Positions 2,688 through 15,700 of a stretch of DNA of 20,000 nucleotides are shown piece by piece. The translations under genes were made by a program, and so were the position numbers. How positions within the stretch are numbered: position 1 is the first letter of the stretch; every line of letters begins with the position of its first letter. The stretch comes from an uncultured virus (IMG/VR IMGVR_UViG_3300010938_000025) (taxonomy: Duplodnaviria > Heunggongvirae > Uroviricota > Caudoviricetes), in IMG/VR virus record IMGVR_UViG_3300010938_000025; one strand, 5' to 3'. Under the pieces are notes generated by a model. That model ran no database searches. It was given only the letters and a program-made list of their open reading frames with translations, and was not told where the DNA came from.

Positions 2688-2983
2688 GTGAACCAGACCA
2701 GGGTACTCCCGTTCTCAAGTTTCAGGCAATAGCCCTGTGTGTCACCGGTCAACACGTATACGGCCGGGCAGGTTGTGTCGGTGGACACGCTCAGTGGCCT
2801 CAAATTGACCGGCGCGCCCAGGGCCTGGACGGTGAGCGTGGCCACCTCACCGGGCGCCAGGTTAATCTTGGAGACACCGAACTCAAGTGTAGCCGGGGCC
2901 GTCAGGCTACTCGCCACCAGAATCAGGCCGAAGACGATCAGTGCGACCAGGACTAAACTGGTGAGTCTCAGTAATCTCAGCAT
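2675..2983 (-). CDS. Small secreted or membrane-anchored protein (102 aa)
   Basis: ATG at 2983 follows GGGGG. A basic N-terminus and hydrophobic helix (LVLVALIVFGLILVA) precede a beta-rich segment. The gene overlaps both neighbours. Confidence 0.6.
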   Translation of the reverse strand: MLRLLRLTSLVLVALIVFGLILVASSLTAPATLEFGVSKINLAPGEVATLTVQALGAPVNLRPLSVSTDTTCPAVYVLTGDTQGYCLKLENGSTLVWFTWQK

Positions 2984-4892
2984 GGTCAACCCCCAATTCA
3001 AAGATACAGGCCAACTTTGAGCCGTGGTACACATTCACCCGTTCGGGGTGAGTCTCGGCGTGCAGTGGATACCAGTTGAGTGTGAAGGGATGGATGGTCC
3101 GATCCGCGTCACAGGCTTCGCAGTTGCTCAGGCTGCGCTGCCAGCCGGTCATACCCAATTCCGTCAAAGCCTGCCACAGGCCGATGGTCCAGGCCAGTTG
3201 CACGGCCGTTCTGAGGGCCTGTGGACCGGCCTGGGTCAGCCATTCACGGGCAACCTGCACTGCCCGTTCAACGTGGTCTATAGCGCACGTTTGCGCCCCG
3301 CTGACGGTCTGATAGCCCAACTGACAGGCTTCGGTGCACAGGATACGTCCCAAGGCGGACAGGGCCTGAGCATCCTGTACCGCTTCGGCCTCACGCAGGG
3401 CGCGTAACAGGTGTCCCTGCATGGCCCGGCGGGTGGCCTGTGGGACCTGGTCATCTGGGGTGCGACCGGGGAAGCTTTGCGAATTCGTCTGAACCCGGCC
3501 ACCTGGCAGGACGGTTTGTTGGGCAAAGCTGGCCTTAGGTGTGCGCAGGTAGGCGGTTTCGAGCTCTTCTTTCAAGTTCTCAAGTTCGACGTCCGGGTCA
3601 TAGCCGACTTCTTCGAGGGCTGTACGCCACGAGAGGCCACCGAAGCCCAGTAAAGGCGCGATCTGCTCTTTGATCAGGTCGGCGGCGCGGAGGGAGATAG
3701 GTGCCAGGCGGATACGCGGTTGGGCCTTCCTGAGGGCCGGTGAGCCGGCGCGTTGGGTATAGAGGGTCACCCACCAGTTCAGCCAGTTGGTAATCTGCCC
3801 GCGCAAATAGTCCAGGCGCTCGATCAGGATGCGAGCATCCATTTCGGCGTCTCCGCGACCGGTACTGCCGCGGCCTGGGGTTTCGCCTGAGATAATCCGC
3901 ACGGAGATACCGAGCTGTCTGAAGATATGGAAGGTTAACTCTAACCATTTCTCGGTCGCCATCAGGCTATCGATAGTCGCGGGCACGAACTGTTGCACCT
4001 TGATATTATCCCGCCAGACCAGATAGCCTGTCCGGTCGCCGGTCGCGCCGCGCAATTTCTGGGTCAGGAGGGTTATCTCGCCGGCCTGTGGGTTCGAGAG
4101 GGTAAAAAGCCAGAACTGACCCTTGATGCCCTCGATCAGGCCGCGGGACATTTCTTCCAGGACCCAACGGGTTGAAATCGCGCGGATGGCGCGAGCAATG
4201 GGTGGGAACGCATAGCGTTCCCACGGGAACTTGCGTTGGGACAGGTGGCGTACCAGTTCGGTCTTGAGTGGAATGATCTGGGCCTTCTGAACGATCCGGG
4301 TGGCGTAGTCGTCGGCTAAAGCCTGATAGAAGGCCCTCGGATACGCATGTTCCTGCTGGAGTTCCATCAGCAGTTCTTCTGAGGTCAGCAGGCCCATGTT
4401 GCGTTGGCCGACCGTCTTGACCTCGCCCACCGAGACATTGGGTGGATACAGGTGCAGGATACCGGCCGGGGTTTTACCGTCGAACAGGGCCACCGGGAAA
4501 GCGTTCCCGTAGACGCCCAGGGTCAGAAGCAGGGTATCCACGGTCTCTTCAATCTTCAGCAGATCGAACAATTCCCTGATCGCTTTTCTGACACCCACAT
4601 CGCGTGTTGAGATGATAAGCGGTTTACGGCCGACGTCGATGGGTGCGGTGACCGTCTGCCAGACGTCGCCATCGCTGCGGCAGATGACCTCACACAACTG
4701 CATGGCTGCGGCAATATCAGACGGCACCGGCCGAGGCGTCCCCGTTTCTACGGCACCGGCAGTCATCGAGCGAATCCGGTCCAATTGGGCACCGCTGATC
4801 GCGTGCTCGATAGACTGGATGGCATCGCTGAGCGGCAGGCTGGCTTCGATCTTGAACGTGTTTTCGAGTTCCTGCAGGATTGCGTCAGTCAT
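2907..4892 (-). CDS. Phage portal protein with a C-terminal extension
   Basis: 661 aa ORF two genes downstream of TerL. It contains LGVYGNAF and RYAFPPIARAIRAI segments typical of portals, and AGAGGA lies upstream as an RBS. Confidence 0.72.
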   Translation of the reverse strand: MTDAILQELENTFKIEASLPLSDAIQSIEHAISGAQLDRIRSMTAGAVETGTPRPVPSDIAAAMQLCEVICRSDGDVWQTVTAPIDVGRKPLIISTRDVGVRKAIRELFDLLKIEETVDTLLLTLGVYGNAFPVALFDGKTPAGILHLYPPNVSVGEVKTVGQRNMGLLTSEELLMELQQEHAYPRAFYQALADDYATRIVQKAQIIPLKTELVRHLSQRKFPWERYAFPPIARAIRAISTRWVLEEMSRGLIEGIKGQFWLFTLSNPQAGEITLLTQKLRGATGDRTGYLVWRDNIKVQQFVPATIDSLMATEKWLELTFHIFRQLGISVRIISGETPGRGSTGRGDAEMDARILIERLDYLRGQITNWLNWWVTLYTQRAGSPALRKAQPRIRLAPISLRAADLIKEQIAPLLGFGGLSWRTALEEVGYDPDVELENLKEELETAYLRTPKASFAQQTVLPGGRVQTNSQSFPGRTPDDQVPQATRRAMQGHLLRALREAEAVQDAQALSALGRILCTEACQLGYQTVSGAQTCAIDHVERAVQVAREWLTQAGPQALRTAVQLAWTIGLWQALTELGMTGWQRSLSNCEACDADRTIHPFTLNWYPLHAETHPERVNVYHGSKLACIFELGVDHAEITETHQFSPGRTDRLRPDSGGE

Positions 4893-10415: not shown

Positions 10416-10642
10416 GCATAGCACGTAGCGTAGTGTAGCGCGTGGCGTGGCGCGTGGCGTAGCGCGTGGCGCGTGGCCGTGTAACGCGTAGCGTGGCGCG
10501 TGGCGTAGTGTAGCGCATAGCACGTAGCGTAGCGTAACGCGTAGCGTGGCGCGTGGCGTAGCGTAGCGCGTAGCATAGCGTAGCCGTGTAGCGCATAGCG
10601 TAGCGCAGCCGTGTAGCGCGTGGCGCATAGCGCGTGCTATGC
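10416..10642. repeat. Low-complexity array of 5- and 7-nt units (GCGTA/GCGTG/GCGCGTG) bracketed by 10-bp inverted repeats
   Basis: Directly visible. GCATAGCACG at 10416-10425 has its reverse complement CGTGCTATGC at 10633-10642. Confidence 0.9.
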
Positions 10643-11263: not shown

Positions 11264-11294
11264 ACAATAAACACACAACCGAATACCACCTCAG

Positions 11295-11324
11295 AAAGCC
11301 GTAGCGATCTGCTACGGCTTTTTT
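11295..11324 (+). terminator. Intrinsic terminator
   Basis: Stem AAAGCCGTAGC/GCTACGGCTTT with loop GATCT and a T6 tract. Confidence 0.88.
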
Positions 11325-11404
11325 GTTGCCTTGCGGTCGCAAGAGGCCGGCGCCGCAGGCGTGGACCGCACGGGCTCACGCGCCCTCAGCGTGCAATCAG
11401 GACA

Positions 11405-11558
11405 CAGGTAACCGCGCTGGTCGGGTATTGCCAGGTGACCGCGCTGATCGGGTATTGCCAGGTGACCGCGCTGATCGGGGAGTACAGGTGACCGCGCTGC
11501 CAGGTGTTGCCAGGTGACCGCGCTCCGTACTGGTCGGGGAGTGCACAGGTGACCGTGC
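11405..11558. repeat. Direct-repeat array, core CAGGTGACCGCGCT, 6 copies
   Basis: Copies start at 11405, 11432, 11459, 11485, 11511 and 11546 (spacing 27, 27, 26, 26, 35). Confidence 0.9.
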
Positions 11559-11620
11559 CTGGCCTGTTTAAGCCTACGGTTTACGCTGCCGTCGGGCGGG
11601 CGGCACGGGCGTAACATACT

Positions 11621-11895
11621 ATCACCTGACACCACTGTCTGACACAACCCGCATGACATCACTGTCTGACACAACCCGCATCACTGCCTGACACAATCCG
11701 CATGACATCACTGTCTGACACAATACATCACTGCCTGACACAACCCGCACCGTCTGACCTGACATCACTGTCTCACAACCCGCATCTGACACAATCCGCA
11801 CCGTCTGACGTGACATCACTGTCTGACACAACCCGCATCACCGCCTGACGATTACAACCCGCACTACAACCCGTAACCCGCACTACAACCCGACC
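11621..11895. repeat. Modular direct-repeat array (CATCACTGTCTGACACAAYCCGCA, about 8-10 imperfect copies, decaying into TACAACCCGCA units)
   Basis: Shuffled modules TGACATCACTG, YCTGACAC and AAYCCGCA are directly visible. Confidence 0.9.
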
Positions 11896-11970
11896 CTGGC
11901 GAGTTCTCACAGTGTAGAACAGGTCCCGGTGCAGGTTGACACGGGCACAACCTGCGGCAAGGTAGGTTGC

Positions 11971-11979
11971 TTATCCACA
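11971..11979 (+). promoter_or_regulatory. DnaA box (perfect consensus)
   Basis: TTATCCACA in non-coding DNA, about 70 bp before the 22-bp repeats. It is a single copy, so chance occurrence is not excluded. Confidence 0.55.
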
Positions 11980-12051
11980 ACGGTATCAACGACGGAGATT
12001 GCCGCGGGAGGTACTCCGCACTGGTGACCGTAATCCGGGTCGTGCGGTGCA

Positions 12052-12126
12052 AGTCTGGTGGGAATCTGGCGGGAGTCTGGTGGGAATCTGGCGGGAGTCT
12101 GGTGGGAATCTGGCGGGAGTCTGGTG
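12052..12126. repeat. 22-bp perfect tandem repeat x3.4 (11-bp subunits), iteron-like
   Basis: AGTCTGGTGGGAATCTGGCGGG at 12052, 12074 and 12096, with a partial copy at 12118. Confidence 0.9.
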
Positions 12127-12199
12127 CGGACTTATGGTGACGGTCTACTGTGGTCGGGCTTATTGCGGTTTGAACGTCATTTGCCTTTCTACGGCTTTA

Positions 12200-12312
12200 C
12201 TACTTCTTCTTCTACTTGAGAGAGTCGGAAAACTACGTAGAAACGGTCTGTGTGAGACACTCGCGGCGTAGAAGAAATGTAGAAGAATCGGTCAGACGTA
12301 GAAGAATCGGTC
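12200..12312. repeat. GTAGAAGAA repeats (3 direct copies plus an inverted TTCTTCTAC)
   Basis: GTAGAAGAA at about 12268, 12279 and 12298, the last two extending to GTAGAAGAATCGGTC. The inverted copy is at about 12206. Confidence 0.75.
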
Positions 12313-12351
12313 GGGCAGCAGGATTCGGCGATAGTTATGTCGAATTAGCCG

Positions 12352-12502
12352 ACAGGTGAGAGAGCCGCCAGGTGCGAGGTAGCAACAGGTGACCGCACCT
12401 GACCGGCACCTGACCGAAGTAGTCGGGGTGACAGGTGACCGGACCTGACCGGAGCAGTCAGGTGCACCTGACCGAAGTAGTCAGGTGACAGTGACCGGAC
12501 CG
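12352..12502. repeat. CAGGTGACC/CACCTGACC mixed direct and inverted array
   Basis: Includes the perfect 16-bp palindrome GTCAGGTGCACCTGAC (12457-12472) and an imperfect duplication of about 38 bp (starting 12406 and 12464). Confidence 0.85.
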
Positions 12503-12530
12503 GTTGGCTGTAGTCGGATAGATTCGATAC

Positions 12531-12579
12531 TGCCGTTATCGCTGCTATCCTCGCCGTTATCGCCGTTATCGCCGTTAAC
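12531..12579. repeat. 9-bp tandem repeat (CGCCGTTAT), about 5 imperfect copies
   Basis: Sequence tgccgttatcgctgctatcctcgccgttatcgccgttatcgccgttaac. Confidence 0.8.
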
Positions 12580-12658
12580 AATCCGCTACCGACACCCGTT
12601 TTTTTACGTCAATTTCGCAATTTCGTGTAACTTTTTACAATTAGTCTACATAAAAGTA

Positions 12659-12687
12659 TTGACAAAAAGCGATATATATGATATAAT
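12659..12687 (+). promoter_or_regulatory. Perfect-consensus sigma70 promoter of the rightward operon
   Basis: TTGACA (12659-12664), 17 nt ending TGa, TATAAT (12682-12687), with an AT-rich upstream region. Confidence 0.9.
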
Positions 12688-12736
12688 ATATCACTGTGAT
12701 ATATATCGCCACGGTACACTCACGGCGATATATATC
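12669..12736. promoter_or_regulatory. Operator-like GATATATATC palindromes overlapping the promoter and start site
   Basis: Perfect copies at 12698-12707 and 12727-12736 form a 13-bp inverted repeat. Near-copies lie at 12671-12680 and 12680-12692. Confidence 0.65.
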
Positions 12737-12762
12737 CGGCCTCCAGGCCAGACCGGGGTAGG

Positions 12763-12835
12763 CTGTCGATGGCTGCCCGGCCCGTCGAAGATACCGTAGC
12801 AGTTTGCGGCCAGACGACCGGGCGGCCGTTGACAG
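12763..12835 (+). ncRNA. Candidate structured leader RNA (long hairpin)
   Basis: 18-bp stem, 12763-12780 with 12818-12835, with three G-U pairs. It encloses CGTC/GACG and CCGTAG/TTGCGG helices. Confidence 0.5.
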
Positions 12836-12857
12836 GCCAGCACGCCGAAATAATGCC

Positions 12858-13661
12858 ATGAGTACCCAGATCGACGATTTCGATTTTGCCTTCAAGAAAA
12901 GCAGGCAGGCGGCATTCGCCGCCGAACGTAACTCTCACTCACCGCTATCTCCAGCCGACCTGGACGATCTCGTCCAGGTCGCGCTCATCGGTTACTGGCG
13001 CGGCTGGACCCGCCAGCCGCACAATGTCGGCTACGCCTACGCGTCCGCCCGGAACGCGGCGGTAAAGTTTCTCTACCGCTGCCTCATCGGGCGGAACCCC
13101 TTCGCTCTCTCGCTCGAAGATGTCGGCCACGGTGCAGAGCCTGGCGACAGCCTGATGGTCACCCCCGATCCCGAAGACGAAGACACAGACAAAATCCTCA
13201 ATTTTGACTCTCAAGATTTTCAGGCCGCGGTTGCTGAAATCCTGTTGCATAGCCGCAGCAAAAAAGGCCGCCGTGGGGCACAGGCCGCACGGCGCGACGC
13301 GGCCATCGTGTGCGGCCTGGCCAGCGGTCTATCGCCGGCGGTGGTCGCCGGGCGTCTGGGACTACCGGTCGAGCACGTCAAGACATACCGCAAGCGTGCT
13401 CGCAAGGTGCTGGAGGCGTACCTGCAGGCACACCCCAGGCGGTGTGTCCTGTGTGGGTCTGCCGAGAGCCTGACCAGGCACCACATCGTCCCCCGACGAT
13501 GTGGGGGAGACTACGCGCCGGATAACCTGGCGTGGCTGTGCAAGACCTGCCACGCGCAGGTTGAGAATATTTACCTCCGCCAGGAACGTCCCGGCATGTC
13601 GCCGGATGACTGGCGGCGCATCTTTCAATCAATCAATCAAAGGGAAGGAGAAGCAAAATGA
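12858..13661 (+). CDS. ECF-like sigma factor fused to a C-terminal HNH endonuclease domain (267 aa)
   Basis: Region 2-like DLDDLVQVALIGYW...YAYASARNAAVKFL and region 4 HTH GLSPAVVAGRLGLPVEHVKTYRKRARKVL, then CVLCG...HHIVPRRCGG...DNLAWLCKTCH. The start codon is uncertain because the RBS is weak. Confidence 0.8.
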   Translation: MSTQIDDFDFAFKKSRQAAFAAERNSHSPLSPADLDDLVQVALIGYWRGWTRQPHNVGYAYASARNAAVKFLYRCLIGRNPFALSLEDVGHGAEPGDSLMVTPDPEDEDTDKILNFDSQDFQAAVAEILLHSRSKKGRRGAQAARRDAAIVCGLASGLSPAVVAGRLGLPVEHVKTYRKRARKVLEAYLQAHPRRCVLCGSAESLTRHHIVPRRCGGDYAPDNLAWLCKTCHAQVENIYLRQERPGMSPDDWRRIFQSINQREGEAK

Positions 13662-14761: not shown

Positions 14762-15107
14762 AACTATCAAGATGGACATTGTACATGGAACCGTTTCACC
14801 CGTAGTGGAGCTGGCCTCAAGGCCCAGTATGCGACAAAGCCGGCAGGCGCTTGAGGCAGTGGTGGGCGCCCTGCCGGCCACGCAGTACACGGTCGCCTAC
14901 GAATTGGATCCCGCCGGGGACTATTGTGTGTACACGGTCCCCGGCTGGTACTATCCAGTGCTGTGCCGGTGCGTGGGTGAGGTCCCAACAGTTTACGACG
15001 TGGTCCTGTGCAGGGTGCCCAGTGTGGACGTCTGTTTCATGCCACGGGAGTGGCATGGGCACCGGGTAAGCCGCAGGATAATTAAAGCGAAAGGAGATGC
15101 ACAATGA
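14754..15107 (+). CDS. Hypothetical protein, paralogue of 15697..16005
   Basis: GGAGGG RBS, coupled to both neighbours, with shared YELD and CFxPxxW..RVSR motifs. Confidence 0.75.
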   Translation: MTKTIKMDIVHGTVSPVVELASRPSMRQSRQALEAVVGALPATQYTVAYELDPAGDYCVYTVPGWYYPVLCRCVGEVPTVYDVVLCRVPSVDVCFMPREWHGHRVSRRIIKAKGDAQ

Positions 15108-15700
15108 GCGAGAACAAGATTACACCCGTAAGCCCGGTTGCGGCGACGCGCGGCCTGACGCTCTCGCAGGCCGCCAGGCAGGTCCTGGCCGCTCAGGCCG
15201 CGGCCAGTAGTCCGACGGTGCTCATCTGCGACGTGTCGGGGTCGATGGATGAGCACGACGCGCCGGGACACCGAAGGAGGATCGACGCGCTGCGCGACGT
15301 CGTGGCGCAATTGCGAAAAGAGTATCCGAATATCCGTTTGCTGGCGTTCGCGAGTTCGCCCGCCTGGGCCTCGGCCCTGCCTGAGCCGGGCGGTGGAACA
15401 GCGCTACACCTGGCGCTGGACTTCGCCCGCCCGGCAGTAAAACCTGAGTCCGTCGTGTGCCTGATAAGCGACGGACTCCCAGACAGTACAGACGCGGCGC
15501 TGGAAGCCGCCAGGCGGTTTCCTGCCCGGCTGAATGTATTCTACGTTGGCCCGGAGGGCGGCCCGGGCCAGCGGTTCTTGCAGGAACTGGCTGCCGCGAG
15601 CGGCGGCCAGTTCAGGACCTGCCGCCTGGATCAGGACCTGCTGGCCCAGACCCGCCGGGTGCTGAGCCTGCCGGCAGGCCGGAGAGGAGGATTACAATGA
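15104..15700 (+). CDS. von Willebrand factor A (VWA) domain protein
   Basis: Complete MIDAS: LICDVSGSM (DxSxS), GGGTAL and LISDGLPD. Confidence 0.9.
   Translation: MSENKITPVSPVAATRGLTLSQAARQVLAAQAAASSPTVLICDVSGSMDEHDAPGHRRRIDALRDVVAQLRKEYPNIRLLAFASSPAWASALPEPGGGTALHLALDFARPAVKPESVVCLISDGLPDSTDAALEAARRFPARLNVFYVGPEGGPGQRFLQELAAASGGQFRTCRLDQDLLAQTRRVLSLPAGRRGGLQ

Follow-up and report, generated by a model that had tools for sequence, protein, structure and literature searches.

A 267-residue protein (P0001) encoded in 20,000 nucleotides of DNA from an uncultured virus (IMG/VR record IMGVR_UViG_3300010938_000025; the whole stretch is called the window here) joins a very divergent sigma factor to an HNH nuclease domain in one polypeptide. 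The architecture is apparently rare, conserved and undescribed. To our knowledge, sigma factors have been described only as specificity subunits without catalysis of their own, and the existence of a conserved family in which one is covalently linked to a nuclease suggests that promoter recognition and DNA cutting are coupled in some mobile elements. The observation of the fusion is solid. Our favored reading, which we hold tentatively and would place somewhat below an even chance, is that P0001 is a bifunctional early protein, that is, a divergent sigma factor that redirects the host polymerase and carries a tethered HNH nickase.

The gene is a single stop-free frame on the plus strand, running from an ATG at position 12858 to a TGA at 13659–13661. 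An in-frame TTG at 12804, upstream of the ATG, is a possible alternative start, against which stands the observation that the homologue P0002 aligns only from about residue 8–13 of the ATG form. A preliminary description of the window, made from its letters alone, had claimed that one uninterrupted frame joins a segment like sigma region 2 and a region 4 helix-turn-helix (HTH) to a zinc-finger HNH domain at nucleotides 13443–13553 that keeps CxxC, an HH dyad, an Asn and CxxCH. Both parts of the claim hold. The open reading frame (ORF) is continuous over 267 residues, its sigma-like part is backed by the profile, fold and interface evidence presented below, and the Pfam HNH model (PF01844) covers residues 196–235 at 36.6 bits (cut-off 21.4), with all the named residues found (C196-x2-C199, H208-H209, N224 and C228-x2-C231-H232). 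Pfam HNH_5 is likewise above its cut-off (33.7 bits against 27.5). The motif aligns with that of the active HNH domain of IscB and also matches Cas5-HNH. Judged by these residues, the C-terminal part of P0001 is a canonical Cys4-zinc HNH domain with all of its catalytic and zinc ligands. It begins only about 4–8 residues after the last helix of sigma domain 4 and is followed by a conserved C-terminal tail, described as two-helix. The HNH segment (GC 0.60; GC at third codon positions, GC3, 0.68) shows no compositional break relative to the whole gene (0.616 and 0.709), and no NUMOD-type or other DNA-binding module besides the sigma fold was found in P0001 with Pfam. An assembly artefact or frameshift at the junction between the domains is ruled out, because independent homologues keep the same continuous frame and share the uninterrupted architecture.

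The AlphaFold model of P0001 (mean predicted local distance difference test score, pLDDT, 87.5; alignment of 57 sequences) consists of three helices at residues 8–77, four helices at 119–191, a beta-beta-alpha unit at 205–242 and a final helix at 249–266; within the HNH unit, the strands are at 205–209 and 224–228 and the helix is at 229–242.

For the N-terminal part, P0001 taken by itself gives sigma matches that are real but fall short of the curated cut-offs. Pfam Sigma70_r2 (residues 31–72, 22.7 bits, cut-off 24) and Sigma70_r4_2 (residues 157–183, 15.0 bits, cut-off 25.7) are both sub-threshold, as is the NCBIfam model TIGR02937 (sigma70-ECF, for extracytoplasmic function), which is matched at residues 27–188 over nearly the whole of its 165 positions but at 22.4 bits (cut-off 42.9), and the sigma part has no PHROG match at E ≤ 0.01. 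Thus, among the Pfam domains that the preliminary description had named, HNH is above its cut-off in P0001 alone and the two sigma domains are below theirs. We nevertheless accept the sigma identity, because the family profile, the fold and a predicted interface agree. Three of 30 relatives scanned with Pfam (P0005, P0006 and P0017) exceed the Sigma70_r2 cut-off, and four of the 30 exceed that for GerE, a LuxR-type HTH related to sigma region 4. Meanwhile, phrog_1740 ("RNA polymerase sigma factor") is matched by three of the four stand-alone, nuclease-free relatives that were scanned. When a 20-sequence profile of the N-terminal family (alignment A3) was compared with all PDB sequences, the best match was the ECF sigma factor SigL of M. 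tuberculosis (6dv9_F), spanning both domains (profile positions 26–175 to chain positions 36–171, E 1.8e-5); further matches were to sigma-E, sigma-H/AlgU, FliA and many LuxR/FixJ-type HTH domains.

Structural comparison points the same way. Foldseek with the whole P0001 model gave nothing at E ≤ 0.001, since rigid-body alignment suits a multi-domain model poorly; nearly all of the highest-ranked rows are nevertheless ECF or other sigma factors, and HNH proteins appear lower in the list (the Gme nicking HNH 4h9d, Cas5-HNH and McrA). With VIA-align, residues 1–76 matched domain 2 (sigma2) of sigma-28 with Z 8.8 (root-mean-square deviation, rmsd, 2.4 Å, 72 aligned) and the N-terminal domain of SigE with Z 8.6 (rmsd 2.3 Å, 69 aligned), and residues 114–194 matched domain 4 (sigma4) of M. 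tuberculosis SigD with Z 7.9 (rmsd 2.8 Å, 60 aligned) and region 4 of SigR with Z 7.7 (rmsd 2.9 Å, 63 aligned), the sigma4 of CnrH also falling within the range of Z 7.7–7.9. These values are moderate for helical domains, yet sequence profile, fold and domain order all agree. Region 1.1 and domain 3 are absent, and only a low-confidence linker of about 40 residues separates sigma2 from sigma4. In a protein atlas the only leads were below 0.9; all were sigma-like viral clusters, none with both domains. By architecture and predicted fold, then, the N-terminal part of P0001 is a very divergent two-domain member of the sigma-70 family, closest to ECF and phrog_1740 phage sigma factors. The earlier label of an ECF-type sigma factor is apt in the sense that the two-domain fold is ECF-like, that the family profile matches SigL and that the model is closest to sigma domains.

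The sigma/beta' pair is a textbook one, and such complexes have been solved many times. We predicted a complex of P0001 residues 1–82 (alignment A3) with a 191-residue fragment of beta' that contains the clamp helices, taken from a Chloroflexota genome, used as a stand-in host, that carries a related locus (L031; see below). The complex scored 0.70, as against 0.00 for the best of three controls, with runs agreeing in at least 77% of contacts and a partner pLDDT of at least 81. The 0.70 mark is reached by 116 of 157 solved complexes and by 2 of 215 mismatched pairs, counts that are only a rough calibration here because a stand-in beta' and our own alignment were used. The preliminary description had suggested modeling with core polymerase; with the beta' fragment, the prediction returned the canonical interface of sigma2 with the clamp helices: the predicted contact residues (33, 36, 37, 40, 41, 43, 44 and 47) belong to the region-2.1/2.2 helix, which lies on the beta' coiled coil. 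Across the sigma-like family D37 hardly varies (at least 90% of the rows of alignment A1), and Q40 is nearly invariant in the stand-alone relatives and present in all five aligned full-length fusions. The prediction indicates that the interface is still sigma-like; it is not proof that P0001 binds polymerase.

In an exhaustive HMMER search, 1674 of 1.84 billion representative proteins matched P0001 at E ≤ 1e-3; 24 of them reached 1e-10 or better, and 2 reached 1e-30 or better. The best 150 of the 1674 fall into two classes, namely proteins of 170–190 residues that match residues 15–190 only and HNH proteins. The same sigma–HNH fusion was recognized in P0001, P0002, P0007, P0012/P0151, P0021, P0009, P0030 and the copy at L031, in at least eight clusters at 50% identity, and the architecture is thus present in independent proteins, as a search proposed at the outset was meant to establish. 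The layout of P0001 recurs in P0002 (266 residues, 47% identity over 91% of the length), P0007 (258 residues), P0012 with its near-copy P0151 (295 residues) and P0021 (344 residues). P0009 (286 residues) aligns with the sigma profile along 148 columns (hhalign probability 77%, E 2e-5), and P0030 (288 residues) is 38% identical to P0009 over 279 residues. None of the relatives found is more than 50% identical to P0001. A scan of 151 proteins with the family profiles identified a sigma-like part in 42 and an HNH domain in 118; nine had both and 33 had the sigma part only. One of the nine, P0095, has its HNH domain first and a weak C-terminal HTH match, which leaves eight of the 151 with the fusion in the same order; stand-alone sigma relatives are thus several times commoner than fusions (33 versus 8).

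The alignment of 10 sigma-linked HNH domains shows the first CxxC, the HH dyad and the last His in every member. The Asn is present in eight (it is missing in P0012 and P0121), the second CxxC in nine (P0021 has CxxH), and the tail (Table 1) is common to all 10. Identity among fusion members is 14–46% for sigma2, 13–52% for sigma4 and 33–57% for the HNH domain plus tail. In 13 of 15 pairwise comparisons HNH is better conserved than the sigma parts, and this holds for every one of the 10 comparisons of full-length proteins. On these alignments the nuclease is the most constrained part of the fusion, and the fusion itself is, as far as its sequences tell, old and under constraint.

The same HNH-plus-tail is found in other company as well. 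In P0092 and P0121 it follows an N-terminal HTH and a sigma2 domain, without sigma4. The sigma2 of P0092 is above the Pfam Sigma70_r2 cut-off (27.9 bits) and has no detectable kinship with the P0001 sigma-family profile (hhalign probability 1.3%). Because this sigma2 comes from outside the family and carries the same type of HNH, the link between sigma2 and HNH seems to have arisen more than once. In P0102, P0118 and P0119 the HNH-plus-tail is joined to other DNA-binding or zinc-ribbon N-termini. Finally, P0026, which was scored as sigma-only, has a truncated, degenerate HNH-like stretch of Cys and His residues after sigma4. In a tree of the sigma part, comprising five full-length fusions and 32 stand-alone proteins (P0151, P0010, P0095, P0009 and the partial P0128 were excluded), the fusions fall in three places, and P0001 and P0002 are nearer to stand-alone sigma factors than to the other fusions. 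The tree is poorly resolved and a single fusion clade is not rejected (approximately unbiased [AU] test, p 0.10), so that gain, loss and transfer of the HNH domain are indistinguishable.

No full-length relative of P0001 was found in a phage collection of 50,697 records or in a plasmid collection of 72,556 records; HNH-only matches were present in two phage records, both of one Anoxybacillus phage, and in five plasmid records. Searches with the fusion alignment gave 13 loci in viral contigs and 17 in metagenome contigs, all of them matching the HNH part only, and three loci in genome contigs, among which L031 alone is a true relative. In the full-text literature, a coverage outside of which subscription journals lie, we found no description of a sigma–HNH fusion, and none is described in the examined passages of a comparative paper on jumbo phages (PMC7824862). 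The fusion had been called unrecognized at first sight, and its rarity in the collections and the lack of a description in the literature bear this out.

Table 1. Features of the fusion gene and its surroundings in the window
Feature	Position	Strand	Evidence
Sigma–HNH fusion gene (P0001, 267 residues)	12858–13661	+	ORF, Pfam, NCBIfam, AlphaFold model
Sigma domain 2, residues 1–77, three helices; predicted beta' clamp-helix-binding helix 32–52 (D37/Q40)	12858–13088	+	VIA-align; Pfam Sigma70_r2, 22.7 bits; predicted beta' interface
Acidic linker between the sigma domains, residues 78–117, mostly disordered	13089–13208	+	pLDDT below 50 at residues 83–102 of the AlphaFold model; contains TPDPEDEDTDK
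Sigma domain 4, residues 118–191, HTH of the −35-binding type	13209–13430	+	VIA-align to SigD/SigR; family profile versus SigL
HNH (beta-beta-alpha-metal) core and Cys4 zinc site, residues 196–242	13443–13583	+	Pfam HNH, IscB alignment, model
Family-specific C-terminal tail, ENxYxRQERPG[ML]xxxDWRxIF; last helix 249–266	13584–13658	+	Present in all sigma-linked members
Host-type (sigma-70/sigma-A consensus) promoter: TTGACA, 17-nt spacer, TG, TATAAT	12659–12687	+	Only 12/12 match in the 20-kb window
5' leader of about 170 nt: perfect 13-bp stem from inverted GCGATATATAT copies, then a long imperfect hairpin	12688–12857	+	RNA fold
Translationally coupled downstream gene, 367 residues	13658–14761	+	ATGA overlap with the sigma–HNH stop; 31% identity (E 3e-55) to L031 counterpart
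VWA-domain protein, third conserved module member	15104–15700	+	Pfam VWA_2, 27.2 bits; 49% identity to L031 gene in the same relative position
Array of GCGTAGC type	10428–10635		Repeat scan of window
Tandem repeats, 27-nt unit ×4.5	11405–11524		Repeat scan of window
Tandem repeats, units of about 27/49 nt	11627–11839		Repeat scan of window
Tandem repeats, 22-nt unit ×3.4, 100% match	12052–12126		Repeat scan of window
Tandem repeat units	12347–12499		Repeat scan of window
Tandem repeats, 9-nt unit ×3	12551–12577		Repeat scan of window
Terminase-large-subunit-like gene, 603 residues	5129–6940	−	E 6e-10 to annotated large terminase (TerL)

The fusion gene is the first of a rightward operon and is followed by the 367-residue gene, a 117-residue gene and the VWA-domain gene. 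Of the 11 promoter-like sites across the window, its promoter, with an extended −10 TG, alone matches the consensus at 12/12 positions, and there is no credible gene between promoter and ATG (12688–12857), so that the fusion gene is indeed, as had been stated, the first behind the best host-type promoter. The folded RNA of positions 12694–12870 (177 nt) has a predicted energy of −82.7 kcal/mol (z −5.3), none of 200 shuffles being as stable. The motif GCGATATATAT has four matches at 12669–12735, in or just after the promoter, as against 0.04 expected, with one copy in the promoter spacer; motif and leader may constitute an operator or leader hairpin that controls the sigma–HNH gene. Upstream of the gene lies about 1.6 kb of non-coding DNA (11264–12857) with at least five different tandem-repeat arrays, which are candidate origin or binding-site arrays. 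No comparable arrays flank the related gene at L031.

L031 is a 35.1-kb contig of a Chloroflexota metagenome-assembled genome (MAG) in which the module of the window recurs in the same gene order: the sigma–HNH gene, a 448-residue homologue of the 367-residue protein (31% identity, E 3e-55; L031:10589–11857) and a homologue of the VWA protein (49% identity). The L031 copy of the fusion gene also lies behind a strong host-type promoter (TTGACA-17-TATGAT), here followed by about 360 nt of leader; at the nucleotide level the two loci have no similarity. An invariant C-x2-C-x4-C-x2-H motif marks the N-terminal part of the 367-residue protein, whose middle is mostly beta and whose helical C-terminus weakly matches DUF2786. 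Only three relatives of this protein were found among 5.8 billion clusters, and a structure model from three sequences was poor (pLDDT 47.7). Its gene had no match in viral contigs; among sampled genomes, it was present in 1 of 401 from L031's phylum and in 1 of 28 from L031's order, both being L031's own genome. Anti-sigma genes are usually located as this gene is, overlapping the stop of the sigma gene, and given the ATGA overlap and the invariant Cys/His motif we considered the protein as a candidate anti-sigma factor. PADLOC recognized no defense system in the module.

P0001 recalls two known kinds of protein: sigma factors that bear a C-terminal extension, and HNH nucleases that a fused DNA-binding module directs to their targets. 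Like the ECF (group 4) sigma factors (M. tuberculosis SigL, SigE and SigH and E. coli sigma-E; PDB 6dv9, 9m9d and 1or7), it consists of sigma2, a flexible linker and sigma4 and lacks regions 1.1 and 3, and it resembles them in its family profile over both domains, in its best structural matches and in its predicted interface with the beta' clamp helices. Unlike them, it is so divergent as to fall below the Pfam and NCBIfam cut-offs, is encoded by a phage or integrative element, carries a C-terminal nuclease domain and is followed by a gene with no recognized anti-sigma domain. The phrog_1740 phage sigma factors and the stand-alone relatives of about 170–190 residues (P0003–P0006, P0008, P0011 and others) are 34–40% identical over residues 1–190 and share the motifs of the family (the D-x2-Q helix, YAxxAARNAA, SRxKKGxRG and the sigma4 HTH), but they end after sigma4.

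As for its nuclease, P0001 shares with the small HNH nickases of phages and prophages (the N.phiGamma type, the Gme HNH 4h9d and those like HK97 gp74) a compact Cys4-zinc HNH domain of about 75 residues. Those HNH proteins are stand-alone and are encoded beside cos and terminase, whereas the HNH domain of P0001 is fused to a sigma factor and has a family-specific tail, and its gene is 5.9 kb from the only terminase-like gene of the window, on the opposite strand. Being neither adjacent to terminase nor stand-alone, P0001 does not fit the class of terminase-associated HNH proteins (HK97 gp74/N.phiGamma type). In the HNH motif itself (HHIVPR...N...C-x2-CH), P0001 is nearly the same as IscB, Cas9 and Cas5-HNH, with IscB and Cas5-HNH the closest solved sequences, and its fold lies close to that of the Gme nicking HNH (4h9d). 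With IscB, Cas9 and Cas5-HNH it would share the principle that an HNH domain is brought to DNA by a separate targeting apparatus; unlike them, it has neither an RNA guide nor RuvC, and its targeting apparatus would be the sigma fold, possibly on RNA polymerase.

How might such a protein work? In holoenzymes of the sigma-70 family, the upstream edge is where region 4 contacts the −35 element, and small phage HNH domains are strand-specific nickases. We propose that, after entry, host polymerase with its own primary sigma factor would read the promoter at 12659–12687 and make P0001 first. P0001 would then take the place of the host primary sigma factor on core polymerase, presumably like its stand-alone relatives, with domain 2 docking on the beta' clamp helices of the host core and domain 4 reading a −35-type element, and both domains together would redirect polymerase to the element's own promoters. 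Because only about 4–8 residues join it to the last helix of sigma4, the tethered HNH domain would be held against the DNA immediately upstream of the −35 element, at the edge of the stretch that the sigma part occupies, and could make a strand-specific nick or cut there. Possible purposes are the priming or switching of replication, a change in template topology or damage to rival DNA with the same promoters. According to PMC3592412, a 76-residue HNH nicking domain takes on the targeting of the DNA-binding protein to which it is fused, as in the engineered nickase Zif268::N.phiGamma, a principle like that envisaged for P0001. A promoter-proximal nick is the most economical prediction, because small phage HNH domains nick and follow a fused targeting module. 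We infer polymerase binding from structure prediction alone, and nuclease activity and the place and purpose of cutting are likewise inferences. In its full form, in which the sigma part takes core polymerase to the element's promoters and HNH nicks just upstream of the −35 element so as to start or switch replication or to cripple rivals, the scheme seems to us rather unlikely. It had been suggested that P0001 couples transcription to nicking at an origin or at a packaging site. The link to an origin is weak, because the repeat-rich region upstream of the gene is not common to L031, and that to packaging is weak, because the gene does not adjoin terminase.

Several points, to which the sub-threshold domain scores belong, weigh against the sigma-plus-nickase reading. 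The predicted beta' complex, with its rough calibration, may have passed through mere likeness, because so many such structures have been solved. No promoter motif readable by the sigma part of P0001 was found in the 20 kb that are visible of a genome of about 75 kb. The packaging operon is preceded by a host-type promoter-like site with an 11/12 match (8135–8107, minus strand), so that a phage sigma factor is not obviously needed there. The conservation of HNH above the sigma parts also fits cutting as the core function and the sigma fold as a targeting module. Finally, the only other fusion copy with a known context, that of L031, is frameshifted. It is split (L031:9586–10477) into a sigma2 frame from 9586 to about 9950 and a sigma4–HNH frame, in another reading frame, from 9965; P0010 (168 residues) is the 3' part of this copy, and the sigma2 upstream is 38% identical to the N-terminus of P0012 (E 3e-20). 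The frameshift separates domain 2 from domain 4 and reflects either decay of this copy or a mistake in the assembly of the MAG.

A rival arrangement is one in which P0001 is a site-specific nuclease that works without polymerase and in which the sigma2–sigma4 fold is a bipartite DNA reader that aims HNH at one or a few sites in the element. Action there could serve to initiate replication, to process the ends of the genome or to cut sites in related elements. We consider this arrangement unlikely, though deserving of serious attention. It accords with HNH being the best-conserved part of the protein, with the presence of the same HNH-plus-tail on the other N-termini of P0102, P0118 and P0119, with the 1.6 kb of non-coding DNA packed with tandem-repeat arrays that the gene adjoins, and with the adoption by HNH nicking domains of the specificity of fused DNA-binding modules (PMC3592412). 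A mere DNA reader would, however, have no need of the conserved polymerase-binding helix with D37 or of the confidently predicted beta' interface; moreover, the nuclease-free relatives resemble ordinary phage sigma factors, and the repeat-rich region is not shared by L031.

Alternatively, an ordinary sigma gene could have acquired a selfish, homing-type HNH at its 3' end; the sigma factor would then work as usual, the two activities would be independent, and the HNH would serve to spread the gene or module into related elements without it. The distribution of the five full-length fusions over three places among 32 stand-alone relatives in the sigma tree speaks for such a fusion, as do the position of P0001 and P0002 closer to stand-alone sigma factors than to other fusions, the apparent decayed HNH remnant after the sigma part of P0026 and the presence of the three-gene module in two different kinds of mobile element; but a single origin of the fusion is not rejected by the AU test (p 0.10). 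Nor does the HNH segment differ in composition from the rest of the gene, and it has no DNA-binding module of its own. The catalytic residues are kept in proteins whose sigma parts are as little as 13% and at most 52% identical, unlike the cycle of gain and decay that is typical of homing genes, and the same type of HNH on a different sigma2 lineage argues for a functional link. Capture of the 3' end of a sigma gene by a homing HNH, an option already raised in the preliminary description, thus stays a rival, one that we judge improbable; a recent capture has against it the uniform composition, the conservation of HNH and the retention of the fusion at 13–52% sigma identity.

Some ECF sigma factors are controlled by C-terminal extensions, and the HNH fold could be a non-catalytic, zinc-binding extension of this kind, a very improbable reading, in our view, for which the position of the extension on an ECF-like sigma factor, the conserved post-HNH tail with no known catalytic role, the absence of the Asn in two of 10 members and the change of a zinc ligand in one of 10 may be cited, but against which stand the HH dyad and the final metal-binding His in all 10, the match of the motif to the active nucleases IscB and Cas5-HNH, and the literature on C-terminal extensions of ECF sigma factors and HNH, in which no regulatory extension of this sort was found and the sole match was an unrelated review.

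If the sigma-plus-nickase reading is true, P0001 would be a new sort of nuclease, aimed through the transcription initiation machinery and not by a restriction-type reader, a guide RNA or a homing-type DNA-binding domain. It could explain the timing of replication or the exclusion of rivals by such elements, and it would offer a compact nickase programmable through pairs of sigma factor and promoter. Were HNH in fact to ride on polymerase, it would be a natural promoter-programmed nickase and would newly link transcription initiation to DNA cleavage. Even on the plainer readings, the domain architecture is apparently undescribed, and a phage and an integrative element of uncultured bacteria have in common a conserved early module of three genes.

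We turn, lastly, to the elements themselves. The phage-like genes of the window include those for an endolysin-type amidase, two glycosyltransferases, a VRR-NUC nuclease and an SNF2 helicase, and the attribution of the DNA to a phage is borne out by the amidase and by the terminase-large-subunit-like gene. The 603-residue product of the latter is 22.8% identical, over 80% of the length (E 6e-10), to the annotated large terminase of the uncultured Caudovirales GX15bay; it has no Pfam or PHROG match. Downstream of it, a 661-residue gene (2907–4892, minus strand) has no match and is similar in length to the annotated portal of GX15bay (about 660 residues). The element at L031 (about 16 kb; L031:1219–17266) encodes a tyrosine integrase, a DnaA_N-domain protein, an FtsK/SpoIIIE ATPase, a PAPS-reductase/DUF3440 and ParB-like pair and an HAD/PNK-phosphatase; the DnaA_N-domain gene has internal 22-nt repeats at 2800–2937. 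No capsid or terminase was matched in a Pfam scan of the 22 ORFs of L031, which, from its gene content, looks like an integrative element rather than a phage. Finally, we note that, whereas the window has no twister-sister match and its first two module genes overlap by ATGA, L031 contains a twister-sister self-cleaving ribozyme (Rfam RF02681; L031:10452–10520, plus strand; 42.8 bits as against a gathering score of 34, E 2.3e-6), which sits exactly between the end of the sigma4–HNH frame and the next gene of the module.

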